NCBI GenBank assembly: GCA_024635455.1
Contig: JAGXIU010000003.1
Span: 226,446-290,445 of the forward strand
DNA: 64,000 nt
Direction of reading: 5' to 3'
Source: Candidatus Saccharimonadota bacterium
GTDB lineage: Bacteria > Patescibacteriota > Saccharimonadia > Saccharimonadales > SLHW01
Shown here: piece after piece, positions 1,850-59,818 of the stretch
How the letters are laid out: each line of letters opens with the position of its first letter
Position numbering within the stretch: the first letter of the stretch is position 1
Program-made: the position numbers and the translations under genes
Notes under the pieces: generated by a model
The model's input: the letters and a program-made list of their open reading frames with translations, nothing else
What the model was told of the DNA's origin: nothing
The model's database searches: none

Positions 1850-2719
1850 TTACTGTGCGACCTTTTGTTCAAAAATATCTGGCACAGGCGCTGTAAAGGT
1901 CTCACGCTGGTTTGGGCGAACATATAGCGTTAGTTGATGCGCATGAAGATACAGTCTCTCCGCCTCTTCACCACCGTAGAGAAAATCACCAACAATCGGA
2001 CACTGAATGTAGGCCATGTGTACGCGAAGTTGGTGAGTTCGGCCAGTCTTTGGCTGCAGGGCAATGAGACTGTACGAAGAATTAGCTTGTTGCACTAAAT
2101 ATGTGGTATGCGCTTCTTTGCCACGCCTGCCAGCACGGAACGTAGCTGGTTTTTTTGGGTTTCGTTCTATAGGAACGTCTATATTTGCTTCTGTATGCTT
2201 CGGCACACCAGCCACAACAGCAATGTATTCTTTACGAACGATACGATCTGCAAACTGTTTTTGTAGGTGTACTGTTGCCTCTGGTGTTTTCGCGCAAATC
2301 ATGAGGCCGCTTGTAGCTCGATCCAGCCGATGAACAATGCCATATCGTATATTATCGTTTCCAGCCATTGCTTGTGCGTGTTGCCGCAAAAAGCTAGCAA
2401 CACTAGGTTCTTGTTTAAACTTACTTAAGGCATGACTCAACACACCAGCAGGCTTATTCACGACTAGTATATCTTCGTCCTCATAAACAATCGGGATATT
2501 GATTTCTGGTATTTCTCCGATTGACTCCATGTCATATAGGATTTCAACCGTATCTCCGCGGCTCAACTTATAGCCCGATTTTTGTGGATTTTTGTTAACT
2601 AGTACTTGGTTGTCCTTACATAAACTTTGTAAAAAACTACGACTAATCTGAGGGAAATGAGCAGCCAGAACATGGTCAACTCGTTTTTTATCCTCACGTG
2701 GCTCAACGGTAAATAACAT
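1850..2719 (-). CDS. RluA/RluD-family 23S rRNA pseudouridine synthase
   Basis: S4-like N-terminus, catalytic HRLDRATSGL motif, PKTGRTHQLRVH. Confidence 0.85.
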   Translation of the reverse strand: MLFTVEPREDKKRVDHVLAAHFPQISRSFLQSLCKDNQVLVNKNPQKSGYKLSRGDTVEILYDMESIGEIPEINIPIVYEDEDILVVNKPAGVLSHALSKFKQEPSVASFLRQHAQAMAGNDNIRYGIVHRLDRATSGLMICAKTPEATVHLQKQFADRIVRKEYIAVVAGVPKHTEANIDVPIERNPKKPATFRAGRRGKEAHTTYLVQQANSSYSLIALQPKTGRTHQLRVHMAYIQCPIVGDFLYGGEEAERLYLHAHQLTLYVRPNQRETFTAPVPDIFEQKVAQ

Positions 2720-2727
2720 ATGCGTTC

Positions 2728-3831
2728 CTACCGCCGTAAGCCAATGGCTCGCTGAACATCGTACAAGTGTCTATTTGCTATCTGATTCATGAGTTGTTCT
2801 GAGTGTTGCAAGTGGGATTCCACGGTTGCTTGTTTGACCGTCGAGCGCATCTGCTGGTGCTCACCCAGAAAGGCTGCAATCTTATCAGCCACCGCTGATT
2901 TGAGTGGCCCGTATTGTACCTGACCAAGAAATTCATGCTGGCTCCCGCCAAATAATGTATATAAATCAAGCAAGTTGCTCACACCTGGGCGTTTGTCGAA
3001 ATCATATTGAACGTCCTCATAACTATCAGTCGTTGCAGACATGATTTTTTTGCGAGCAACCTCCGGGTTATCGCTCAGGAATATGACACCCTTACCGGTG
3101 TCGTCACTCTTACTCATCTTTTTGGTTGGGTCGGCAAGATCCCGAACCCGCAGACCCTGATCTTTTCCAAAAAACTCATGTTGGTGTTTGACTGATTCTG
3201 GTAAGACAAATAGTTCTTGTTCAAACTTATTATTAATGCGCTCTGCAATGTCTCGAGTGAACTCCAGATGTTGAGTTTGATCGTCGCCAACTGGTACATA
3301 GCGAGCGTTGTACAATAAAATATCAGCGGCCATTAATATTGGATAATTAAACAAACCAACACTCCCATTCTCTTCAGTTTTTCGGATAGTAGTATCGCTC
3401 TGATCTTCGACTTCATGCGTATCCGATGGTTCAATGTTTGTGTTTTGGTGCTGAGCTACTATCGAGCGCCCTTTTTCTTTGAACTGTGTCATACGAAACA
3501 TCTCACCGAATCCGGTAAAGTTACTCAAGATTAATGCGAGTTCGCTGTGAGCTGGTATAAAGCTCTGACGGTACACGTGGACATTCTCATGATCAATCGG
3601 TAACCCGAGAGCAATGTAGTTCGATACAGTATCAAAAATAGCGTCTTGTAACCTGCTATGGTCTATCGGGGTAGTAAAACTATGTAAGTCAGGTACGAAC
3701 AAATTAATCTGATAATCATCAGCGTGTTCTTTTGCTAGATCTATCATCGGCAACAGAGCACCTAGATAATTGCCGATATGTAGGTCGTTATTGACGCGGA
3801 GGCCGGTAAGAATTGTTGTTTTGCTACTCAT
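2728..3831 (-). CDS. trpS: tryptophan--tRNA ligase
   Basis: Class I motifs HIGNYLG and KMSKS, plus PILMAADILLY. The ATG overlaps the stop of the upstream small ORF (ATGA). Confidence 0.93.
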   Translation of the reverse strand: MSSKTTILTGLRVNNDLHIGNYLGALLPMIDLAKEHADDYQINLFVPDLHSFTTPIDHSRLQDAIFDTVSNYIALGLPIDHENVHVYRQSFIPAHSELALILSNFTGFGEMFRMTQFKEKGRSIVAQHQNTNIEPSDTHEVEDQSDTTIRKTEENGSVGLFNYPILMAADILLYNARYVPVGDDQTQHLEFTRDIAERINNKFEQELFVLPESVKHQHEFFGKDQGLRVRDLADPTKKMSKSDDTGKGVIFLSDNPEVARKKIMSATTDSYEDVQYDFDKRPGVSNLLDLYTLFGGSQHEFLGQVQYGPLKSAVADKIAAFLGEHQQMRSTVKQATVESHLQHSEQLMNQIANRHLYDVQRAIGLRR

Positions 3832-4097
3832 AACGTATTGCCTTCATTATAACGTACTTGCCCTGTAGCTGAGACTGTATTTGTGTATTCTTCCCCTAAT
3901 TCATGTCGCGCGCGCTCAAAACACTCAGGCAACACATCACCTATTCTGCTACATTCCCCCTGTTCTAAGGATACCTCGGCATACTGGAGAGCAAGTGATT
4001 GAATTGTGTGCATTGGACTATCCGTAGAATACACGCGCTGTATAGGTGAGTTCGCTTCGGGTGAATGATTATCTGATTCTATATTATTAATTCTCAT
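3828..4097 (-). CDS. hypothetical small acidic protein (89 aa from ATG 4097; an alternative ATG at 4115 sits inside the terminator U-tract)
   Basis: The ORF fills the gap between the leader terminator and trpS. GGAGA (4109-4105) lies 7 nt before ATG 4097. Its stop TGA overlaps the trpS ATG. I recognise no family. Confidence 0.5.
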   Translation of the reverse strand: MRINNIESDNHSPEANSPIQRVYSTDSPMHTIQSLALQYAEVSLEQGECSRIGDVLPECFERARHELGEEYTNTVSATGQVRYNEGNTL

Positions 4098-4115
4098 TGA
4101 TAGATCTCCATGCAT

Positions 4116-4143
4116 AAAAAAACCGCCTCTCTGCAGAGACGGT
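4116..4143 (-). terminator. intrinsic terminator (segment 3:4 of the candidate attenuator)
   Basis: Minus-strand RNA ACCGUCUCU-GCAG-AGAGGCGGU forms a 9-bp stem with one G.U, followed by a U-run (7 U including the closing U). Confidence 0.65.
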
Positions 4144-4175
4144 CTACGAATTATTTTTAATATTTTGTTAGAAAA

Positions 4176-4247
4176 CTACGTAGTTAGACCGCCTCGAGCT
4201 GAGTCGGTAAACCAAATATTGAAATTTGTACGTATATATCTTTTCAC
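4176..4247 (-). CDS. candidate leaderless leader peptide (GTG start, 23 codons, single Trp codon): (M)KRYIRTNFNIWFTDSARGGLTT
   Basis: GTG lies 8 nt downstream of the TACTAT -10. UGG is at 4214-4212, 3 nt before helix segment 1. The TAG stop is at 4178-4176, 6 nt after segment 2. Confidence 0.25.
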   Translation of the reverse strand: MKRYIRTNFNIWFTDSARGGLTT

Positions 4248-4255
4248 TGCTTCAG

Positions 4256-4284
4256 ATAGTACAAAACGCATAATGTTTTGTCAA
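4256..4284 (-). promoter_or_regulatory. sigma70-type promoter TTGACA-17-TACTAT downstream of rpsI
   Basis: -35 at 4284-4279 and -10 at 4261-4256, read on the minus strand. Confidence 0.6.
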
Positions 4285-36973: not shown

Positions 36974-37058
36974 TGGTGCCGCGGGAGAGACTCGAACTCT
37001 CACACCTCTCGATACTAGTTCCTAAAACTAGCGCGTCTACCAATTCCGCCACCGCGGC
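36974..37058 (-). tRNA. tRNA-Leu (anticodon UAG), CCA encoded
   Basis: Reverse complement reads GCCGCGGUGGCGGAAUUGGUAGACGC...CUAGU-UUUAGGA-ACUAG, with a long variable arm, GGUUCGAGUC and CCGCGGC-A-CCA. Confidence 0.92.
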
Positions 37059-59302: not shown

Positions 59303-59818
59303 ATGACGTCTGCAAAAAAACTACCAATTTATGTAATAATGCATGATATTCGAAGTACCCATAACGTCGGCTCTGTCCTTAGAACAGCAGAAGGTTTGGG
59401 TATTGAGCATGTTTACATGAGTGGCTATACGCCGTATCCAAAAGGGCACTCTGGTGATATACGGCTTCCTCATATAGCACATAAGAATCATGAAGCCATC
59501 CGCAAGACCGCGCTAGGGGCGGAAAATACGGTGCGCTGGAGCTACGAACCATCAATCAAAACTTGTATTGATTACCTAAAGCGGGAAGGCGTTACTATAG
59601 TTGGCCTGGAACAGGCCACGCAAGCCAAGCAACTACATACATATACGCCAGATAAACCGATTGCTCTCATCATTGGCAACGAAGTCTCTGGGCTTGATCA
59701 GAAAATCATGGATCAGTGTGACACGATAGTAGAAATCCCAATGCTTGGGCAAAAAGAATCATACAATGTCAGTGTTGCTACGGCTATGGCCCTTCACTGG
59801 TTTCGCTACGGCAATTAG
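59303..59818 (+). CDS. SpoU/TrmH-family RNA 2'-O-methyltransferase
   Basis: IRSTHNVGSVLRTAEG, GNEVSGL and ESYNVSVATAMAL motifs. The start could also be ATG 59264. Confidence 0.85.
   Translation: MTSAKKLPIYVIMHDIRSTHNVGSVLRTAEGLGIEHVYMSGYTPYPKGHSGDIRLPHIAHKNHEAIRKTALGAENTVRWSYEPSIKTCIDYLKREGVTIVGLEQATQAKQLHTYTPDKPIALIIGNEVSGLDQKIMDQCDTIVEIPMLGQKESYNVSVATAMALHWFRYGN

Follow-up and report, generated by a model that had tools for sequence, protein, structure and literature searches.

In a 64,000-nucleotide stretch of a Candidatus Saccharimonadota genome (contig JAGXIU010000003.1, positions 226,446 to 290,445; the whole stretch is called the window below), the tryptophan--tRNA ligase gene trpS and the small open reading frame (ORF) in front of it, orf89, lie behind a short minus-strand leader. 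We propose that this leader is very probably a ribosome-mediated leader-peptide transcription attenuator, which controls orf89-trpS, and rluD if the transcript extends that far, through the speed at which a single Trp codon is decoded; the adjacent Phe codon is probably read as well. A preliminary description, made from the letters alone, had suggested a leaderless attenuator of orf89-trpS that senses the charging of Trp-tRNA, and every test it listed that could be run in silico came out in favor of that interpretation. The family to which the leader belongs is well conserved and appears undescribed, while the kind of regulator is already known from trpL, pheM, Streptomyces trpS, and Corynebacterium aroR.

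Checking the minus strand by hand reproduced all coordinates of the preliminary description—the promoter, the 23-codon ORF from GTG to TAG with its one UGG, the three mutually exclusive helices (1:2, 2:3, and 3:4) formed among four segments, the U-tailed terminator, and the ATGA overlap between the end of orf89 and the start of trpS (Table 1). TTGACA-17-TACTAT is the best sigma-70-like site between 2500 and 6000 in a promoter scan (10/12 matches), and TTGACA-like -35 boxes stand at the equivalent place in most relatives. Likewise, the terminator, an 11-pair stem (4145-4120) followed by seven U, is the strongest terminator-like site of the same interval in a terminator scan. Segment 1 begins 3 nt past the UGG, and the leader stop codon lies 6 nt beyond segment 2.

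A conserved and covarying leader family

The comparison set comprised 80 related trpS loci (numbered with the prefix L), labeled nearly all as Candidatus Saccharibacteria or Saccharimonadales, as are the homologues of the window's TrpS, which places the window among the Patescibacteria; the window genome itself is not among the GTDB species representatives, and its closest relative locus, L002, encodes an S9 protein 86% identical and a TrpS 61% identical to those of the window. The two nearest loci share the layout of the window throughout: a promoter, a start codon, and an ORF with Trp at codon 12 precede an invariant UUUGGUUUACC, after which come a GGCGG segment and an A/U-rich spacer, then the CCGCC...GGCGGUUUUUU terminator, and finally a small ORF and trpS. 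Across the set, 27 of the 80 loci have the octamer TGGTTTAC upstream of trpS, against about two that we estimate for chance.

We defined 31 elements by RNA features alone (UGGUUU, a GGCGG-like core 17-33 nt later, and a CCGCC...GGCGG-U terminator), and built a covariance model, R1, from the alignment of 31 instances (A2). R1 returned 46 matches at E<1e-4 in 40 of the 80 Saccharimonadales trpS loci, with two copies in six of them; all 46 lie upstream of trpS on the same strand, and none falls in the equally sampled downstream half. In the 64-kb window, the model finds exactly one copy (4117-4247, minus strand, 72 bits). It also finds the element on three metagenome contigs—of 80 loci returned by a metagenome scan for the pattern TGGTTTACCN{8,16}GGCGGT, three match R1 at E<=0.01, and the remaining pattern matches look like chance. 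Together, the 46 locus matches, the window, and the three contigs make up a 50-sequence model alignment. At loci without the element, trpS often follows rpsI directly, separated from it by 21-79 nt. Where two copies stand in series, they precede two different genes within the cluster that leads up to trpS; these loci are L006 (695-828, 1053-1197), L010 (678-798, 2567-2681), L019 (1552-1673, 1967-2087), L020 (2234-2380, 2615-2740), L028 (1628-1750, 2066-2183), and L044 (2170-2324, 2562-2695).

All three helices show compensatory changes. For the terminated state (1:2 plus 3:4), 86.9% of cells in the 50-sequence alignment are paired and 11 of 15 pairs carry double changes, a degree of covariation reached by none of 500 shuffles and approached by no slid control; the terminator on its own is conserved in all 50 members, with compensatory changes and 89.5% of cells paired. 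The 2:3 antiterminator, to which R1 was not fitted, is nonetheless 92% paired, with a covariation score of 0.201 versus 0.103 in shuffles (0/500), and when the arms are slid by 1-3 columns its pairing falls to 33-67% and its covariation is lower in every case. One column of segment 2, the middle of GNG, covaries with its partners in both segment 1 and segment 3. The same signal emerges without an alignment: cognate 2:3 duplexes average -21.4 kcal/mol versus -18.9 kcal/mol for non-cognate arms (0/10000 permutations), and many members extend 2:3 to -25 to -31 kcal/mol versus -10 to -16 kcal/mol for their own terminators. It should be noted that helices 1:2 and 2:3 were specified by hand, as RNAalifold on a MAFFT alignment recovered the terminator only. 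The spacing between codon and helix is also kept, with the GGCGG core of segment 2 starting 20-22 nt after the UGG in 28 of 31 members, and at homologous loci the ORF, its frame, and the position of the UGG are preserved, as expected of the attenuator first proposed.

Probable leaderless translation and the putative sensing codons

Although the 31 elements were chosen without regard to any reading frame, an ATG 16-45 nt before the UGG stands in frame 0 in 30 of them, as against none in frame +1 and three in frame +2. The sole element with no in-frame ATG is that of the window, where GTG occupies the homologous position and opens an ORF that alignment A2 shows to be homologous to the ATG-started leaders of relatives. 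A TAnnnT hexamer lies 4-9 nt ahead of the leader start in 25 of 31 members (mode 7 nt), which agrees with the promoter-to-start spacing noted in the preliminary description; typically, the family promoter is an extended TGnTATATT with a TTGACA -35 box. Because the -10 box is so close upstream, the transcript is expected to begin at or next to the start codon. Two copies that lack such a promoter, L020 and L044b, instead carry a Shine-Dalgarno sequence (GGAGG or AGGAG) placed 8 nt ahead of the ATG; the copy in L051 directly follows the rpsI stop.

The preliminary description had also noted this close -10 spacing at more than a dozen other genes of the window. That claim held roughly: a strong -10 hexamer lies 6-10 nt before the start of 10 of the 61 window ORFs of at least 120 aa, compared to a base rate of 1.2% per start-like triplet, and only three of these starts also have a good -35 box. 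Leaderless mRNAs therefore look common in this genome. The starts in question are at 59303(+), 52323(+), 59242(-), 48223(-), 42678(-), 41401(-), 40586(-), 36843(-), 55823(-), and 993(-), with the hexamer often TATACT.

These translation signals bear on a quite improbable alternative, namely that the ORF is incidental and that the element acts as untranslated RNA—a riboswitch, a protein- or tRNA-binding T-box-like leader with UGGU:NCCA pairing, or a small RNA gene. Within the core clade, UGGUUUACC is invariant at the nucleotide level, as such a reading would have it, and it loosely resembles the UGGNACC bulge of T-boxes; a terminated product of about 130 nt would, moreover, be a stable small RNA. 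On the other hand, only about 35 nt separate the start from the UGG, leaving no room for a Stem I, and no structure upstream of the UGG is conserved across 31 members (mean z -0.3). One candidate there, a 5' hairpin AACCA-N4-UGGUU that would sequester the UGG, proved to be confined to one sub-clade and was dropped as a family feature. Rfam searches of the element at E<=10 gave no match to T-box (RF00230), Trp_leader (RF00513), any riboswitch, or any other family besides two sub-threshold ones, Phe_leader (RF01859; 29.5 bits versus a threshold of 55) and L10_leader (18 bits). The topology is likewise wrong for a T-box, since segment 2 is a copy of segment 4 and the UGG is not part of the antiterminator, and we rejected that reading on these three counts. 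Finally, the frame-0 ATG in 30 of 31 elements and the Shine-Dalgarno sequences of promoter-less copies would go unexplained without translation. The terminated transcript may still have an additional role as a free-standing small RNA; attenuator-derived RNAs can act in trans, as reported for rnTrpL (PMC6614838).

Among coding features, only the Trp is universal, falling at codon 9-14 in all but one of the 50 matches, while neighboring residues, peptide length, and the C-terminus vary and the stop follows 5-19 codons after the Trp codon. Core-clade members read Tyr-Trp-Phe-Thr (UAU UGG UUU ACC), placing three aromatic residues consecutively, and Tyr-Trp-Phe occupies the sensing position in most members; the window reads Ile-Trp-Phe-Thr. 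Divergent members have W-Y-T, W-Q-T, W-R-T, W-H-I, and W-K-N, among other variants, and in some of them the Trp codon occurs two or three times. With a Phe codon beside the UGG in the window, and both Tyr and Phe codons beside it in most relatives, the sensor may thus read more than Trp. Constraint on the rest of the ORF appears to belong to the RNA: the codon that follows Phe supplies the base of helix 1:2 and for that reason stays NCC, and both the GGCGG core of segment 2 (Arg-Gly-Gly in some members, Leu-Ala-Val in others) and the conserved GUUCUGUGYGUUUGC after it are read in two frames, and are therefore RNA rather than peptide constraints.

This pattern speaks against an arrest peptide of the TnaC type, in which free L-Trp, bound by a nascent Y/I-W-F-T within the exit tunnel, would stall the ribosome, and read-through would follow from high free Trp rather than from a shortage of charged tRNA, a possibility to which we attach very little weight. 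The Trp position does match: it falls at codon 9-14 overall, and the window shares codon 12 with TnaC; the window's Trp12 is also followed by Phe, like the W12-F13 of TnaC, and in one sub-clade a QNNQYWFT motif is kept through synonymous changes. TnaC, however, requires Trp12, Asp16, Ile19, and Pro24, stalls at a stop codon 12 residues after the Trp, and relies on Rho termination (PMC8429421). Here, the stop comes at a variable distance from the Trp, the core set has no C-terminal Pro, no Asp is conserved, the residue at W+3/W+4 is variable, W+1 and W+2 vary widely in divergent members, the NCC conserved at the W+2 codon agrees with pairing to segment 2, and termination is intrinsic. In addition, there would be little physiological point in raising TrpRS when Trp is abundant. 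With only the Trp position in agreement, we rejected a free-Trp sensor as the main model.

Folding energetics and the proposed mechanism

In the window, helix 1:2 folds at -7.2 kcal/mol (z -1.25), the 11-bp helix 2:3 at -16.0 kcal/mol (z -4.15), and terminator 3:4 at -16.3 kcal/mol (z -6.03), with none of 200 shuffles as good for either of the latter two; the complete 140-nt leader reaches -33.3 kcal/mol (z -3.05). Terminator and antiterminator are thus isoenergetic, and 2:3 is able to compete with 3:4. We then simulated ribosome masking in 31 members: with a ribosome on the UGG and the RNA cut before segment 4 is made, 2:3 is the minimum free energy (MFE) structure in all 31, and a ribosome placed at the stop codon of the window masks segment 2. 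Full-transcript equilibrium folding with masks, in which the terminator stays the MFE structure in most members, is uninformative for a kinetic switch. We also observed a further pairing, probably lineage-specific, between UACGUAC near the 5' end of the leader (4228-4234, minus strand) and CUACGUAG at the stop codon (4176-4184); it encloses the 1:2 hairpin, and 4176-4247 folds at -14.2 kcal/mol (z -1.46).

Under the attenuator reading, transcription would begin about 7-8 nt after the -10 box, the mRNA would start at or next to the GTG, and the leader would be translated without a 5' untranslated region. When charged Trp-tRNA(Trp) is scarce, a ribosome would stall with UGG in its A site, covering segment 1 and leaving segment 2 free; a stall with UUU in the A site would likewise cover segment 1. 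Segment 3, on leaving the polymerase, would pair with segment 2 (11 bp, -16 kcal/mol) and be lost to the terminator, and RNA polymerase would continue into orf89-trpS. With ample charged tRNA, the ribosome would pass segment 2 to the TAG six nt farther on and occlude it, pairing of segments 3 and 4 would give the U-tailed terminator, and transcription would end with an RNA of about 130 nt; after ribosome release, the local 1:2 hairpin could reform. Given the weakness of 1:2, termination probably relies mainly on the translating ribosome—most likely on its occupying segment 2 and the 3' extension of that segment while segments 3 and 4 are made—with 1:2 helping after release or serving as a pause hairpin.

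Several observations weigh against this mechanism. First, helix 1:2 is weak in the window (energies above), and 2:3 is already the MFE structure without any ribosome in 22 of 31 members when the RNA is cut before segment 4; the classical anti-antiterminator role of 1:2 is therefore doubtful. Second, when the full-length window RNA is folded at equilibrium, masking segment 1 does not keep the terminator from prevailing, and the decision must therefore be kinetic. Third, a single Trp codon should make for lower sensitivity than tandem codons, and one copy upstream of trpS (L076, 2665-2782) reads Tyr-Tyr-Phe, the only match without a Trp codon. Fourth, the window leader starts with GTG, although ATG is found in all 30 other leaders of A2. 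Fifth, only trpS neighborhoods were sampled, and the association with trpS is therefore partly by construction. Last, our literature searches found no study of transcription-translation coupling in bacteria of the Candidate Phyla Radiation (CPR).

Some of these points would also suit a non-specific translation-rate sensor responding to any slowdown of ribosomes (antibiotics, general starvation), or else an unregulated partial terminator that insulates trpS from the ribosomal-protein operon; in either case the Trp codon would not be special. Any stall upstream of segment 2 would favor 2:3, there is only the one Trp codon, and the L076 copy does without it. Trp is normally a rare residue, however, and nearly all members keep an in-frame UGG at a constant distance from segment 2, with flanking codons enriched for Tyr and Phe and with trpS, DAHP synthase, and prephenate dehydratase genes behind it, such that we hold this explanation to be improbable. 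In its favor, leader-peptide attenuators that sense translation inhibitors are known, for example bmrCD (PMC4191407).

Associated genes, locus, and known systems

In relatives, the gene that first follows the attenuator is in several cases one of aromatic amino-acid biosynthesis, sitting between the element and trpS: class I DAHP synthase (L003:2052-2966, L024:1903-2982, L059:2025-2966, L074:1923-2987, and L060:1633-2985), class II DAHP synthase (L058:745-1947), or prephenate dehydratase (L055:2263-2967). Because amino-acid biosynthesis is generally considered absent from CPR genomes, these enzymes are unexpected, and their presence supports an aromatic or Trp signal for the attenuator. An Asp/Glu-type amino-acid racemase (L041, 2286-3005) and an AstE/aspartoacylase-like deacylase (L028, 2212-2952) also lie behind the element, which suggests that amino-acid salvage genes belong to the same regulon; L027:2307-2663 was grouped with this cargo. 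Lastly, proteins of one family, about 290-320 aa long and matched by neither Pfam nor NCBIfam, are encoded immediately after a Trp-codon attenuator of their own in four loci (L010:819-1736, L019:2117-2986, L046:1216-2175, and L061:1414-2334), making the family a candidate for a Trp-related function; L058:2102-2986, behind a second and weak model match, is an apparent further member by similarity judged by eye, outside the clustering.

These genes invite a broader and, as a whole, unlikely reading, in which an aromatic/Trp starvation regulon with unusual sensing logic would extend across Saccharimonadales, with the window element as its founding member, and would be built from one family of leaderless attenuators that were duplicated, sometimes in tandem. 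The regulon would comprise trpS, DAHP synthase, prephenate dehydratase, the amino-acid racemase, the deacylase, and the family of about 300 aa, and it would either sense three aromatic aminoacyl-tRNAs at one Tyr-Trp-Phe site or use a peptide-assisted stall for which a single Trp codon is enough. Within such a scheme, a further role in trans might fall to the freed transcript of about 130 nt or to the peptide.

At the window locus, the minus-strand genes upstream form a ribosomal-protein cluster (secY, infA, rpmJ, rpsM, rpsK, rpsD, rpoA, rplQ, rplM, rpsI), and rpsI is followed by the attenuator element, the small ORF, trpS, and a gene for an RluD-type pseudouridine synthase. Of the two possible starts of the small ORF, ATG 4097, behind GGAG at 4109-4106, is more likely than ATG 4115. 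Its product is small and acidic and has no Pfam or NCBIfam match, no tblastn match in the 80 relative loci, and only weak similarity to the corresponding ORF of L002 (E 0.015). It falls in a class of small, rapidly diverging ORFs found at this position, between element and trpS, in about 30 relatives, with trpS starting 12-56 nt further on. The RluD-type gene is probably on the same transcript as trpS, and the trpS-rluD order is kept in 80 of 80 loci. The sole Rfam matches above threshold in the whole window are three tRNA genes, tRNA-Tyr(GTA), tRNA-Thr(GGT), and tRNA-Leu(TAG), on the minus strand at 1-82, 124-199, and 36974-37058.

Table 1. Features of the attenuator element and its flanking genes in the window, with the basis or details of each assignment
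Feature	Position	Strand	Basis or details
rpsI stop TAA	4305-4303	minus	sequence reading
-35 box TTGACA	4279..4284	minus	begins at 19th nt after rpsI stop
-10 box TACTAT	4256..4261	minus	17-nt spacer from -35; 8 nt before GTG (leaderless geometry)
Leader ORF (M)KRYIRTNFNIWFTDSARGGLTT	4176..4247	minus	GTG 4247-4245, 23 codons, TAG 4178-4176
Regulatory codons UGG (Trp, codon 12) and UUU (Phe)	4214-4212 and 4211-4209	minus	sequence reading
Segment 1, ACCGACUC, 5' arm of 1:2 hairpin	4201..4208	minus	energy; covariation at CNC/GN'G pairs
Segment 2, GAGGCGGUCUA, partner of segment 1 or segment 3	4185..4195	minus	energies, covariation, cognate pairing
A/U-rich spacer holding stop codon; antiterminator loop	4147..4184	minus	length and sequence vary among relatives
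Segment 3, UAGACCGUCUC, arm common to antiterminator and terminator	4136..4146	minus	terminator scan, energies, covariation
Segment 4, AGAGGCGGU (4130-4122), with U-tract (4122-4116), completing the intrinsic terminator	4116..4130	minus	scan, energy, conservation
Small first downstream ORF (orf89)	3828..4115	minus	95 aa from ATG 4115, or 89 aa from ATG 4097
trpS (tryptophan--tRNA ligase), main regulated gene	2728..3831	minus	Pfam tRNA-synt_1b E 7.7e-53; homologues so named
RluD-type pseudouridine synthase gene	1850..2719	minus	starts 8 nt past trpS stop

CPR bacteria (Patescibacteria) have tiny genomes and, to our knowledge, little described gene regulation; our literature searches returned nothing on attenuators or leader peptides in Saccharibacteria or Patescibacteria. 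If the attenuator reading is correct, transcription and translation would be coupled in Saccharimonadales, leaderless translation would be used for regulation, and these organisms would monitor Trp-tRNA charging to tune TrpRS. As the mechanism is a textbook one, the gain would be in scope and biology rather than in principle. The shikimate-pathway and salvage cargo, not usually credited to such genomes, offers a handle on how these episymbionts obtain amino acids, presumably from the host, and there may be a connection to natural inhibitors of TrpRS, indolmycin for example, like that of the auxiliary TrpRS of Streptomyces. In practice, R1 can be used for annotation as it stands, and a compact Trp-responsive part could be made from the element.

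Among known systems, E. coli trpL has the same design: a short leader ORF with Trp codons, mutually exclusive helices 1:2, 2:3, and 3:4, an intrinsic terminator, and a stalled ribosome that masks segment 1. There is no sequence or model similarity between the two, though, and trpL, with two Trp codons against one in the window, has a Shine-Dalgarno sequence and controls a biosynthetic operon, whereas the window element is leaderless and precedes a synthetase gene; the window's 1:2 helix, much weaker than its 2:3, counts as another difference. E. coli pheM carries several Phe codons in place of the single Trp codon here, and it comes from another phylum and shows no homology. The resemblance is one of logic, in that an aminoacyl-tRNA synthetase operon (pheST) is attenuated by means of codons for its own amino acid (PMC11802643). 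The sub-threshold Phe_leader match is to the pheA leader model, with the terminator and the A/U-rich region as the best-aligned stretches.

One of the two closest functional precedents is in Streptomyces, where Vecchione and Sello (J Bacteriol 2010) reportedly demonstrated by experiment that trpRS1 is controlled by ribosome-mediated attenuation. There, as in the window, a classical attenuator with Trp codons stands directly upstream of a tryptophanyl-tRNA synthetase gene. Comparative genomics had predicted it upstream of this gene (trpS2/trpRS1; PMC1262725). That system, however, controls an auxiliary, antibiotic-resistant second TrpRS, whereas the window trpS is the only one seen in its locus; the window also has a small ORF between element and trpS, and the sequences are unrelated. 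Mycobacterial leaderless polycysteine upstream ORFs are similar in that they are short and leaderless and adjust, through their regulatory codons, how strongly the genes further down the operon are expressed (bioRxiv 10.1101/834739). They have a run of Cys codons, compared to one Trp codon, a clear intrinsic terminator, and a covarying antiterminator in the window.

The other close functional precedent is in Corynebacterium glutamicum, where the leader transcripts of aroR and trpL are leaderless, as we propose for the window. Consecutive aromatic codons there control a DAHP synthase operon, and relatives of the window element also precede DAHP synthase genes. Both C. glutamicum leaders (Neshat et al. 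2014) are leader-peptide attenuators, with AroR (Phe-Tyr-Phe) upstream of the DAHP synthase gene aroF (PMC11802643). What sets the present family apart is its triplet, Tyr-Trp-Phe (Ile-Trp-Phe in the window), its occurrence in another phylum, and the inclusion of a synthetase gene in the regulated unit.

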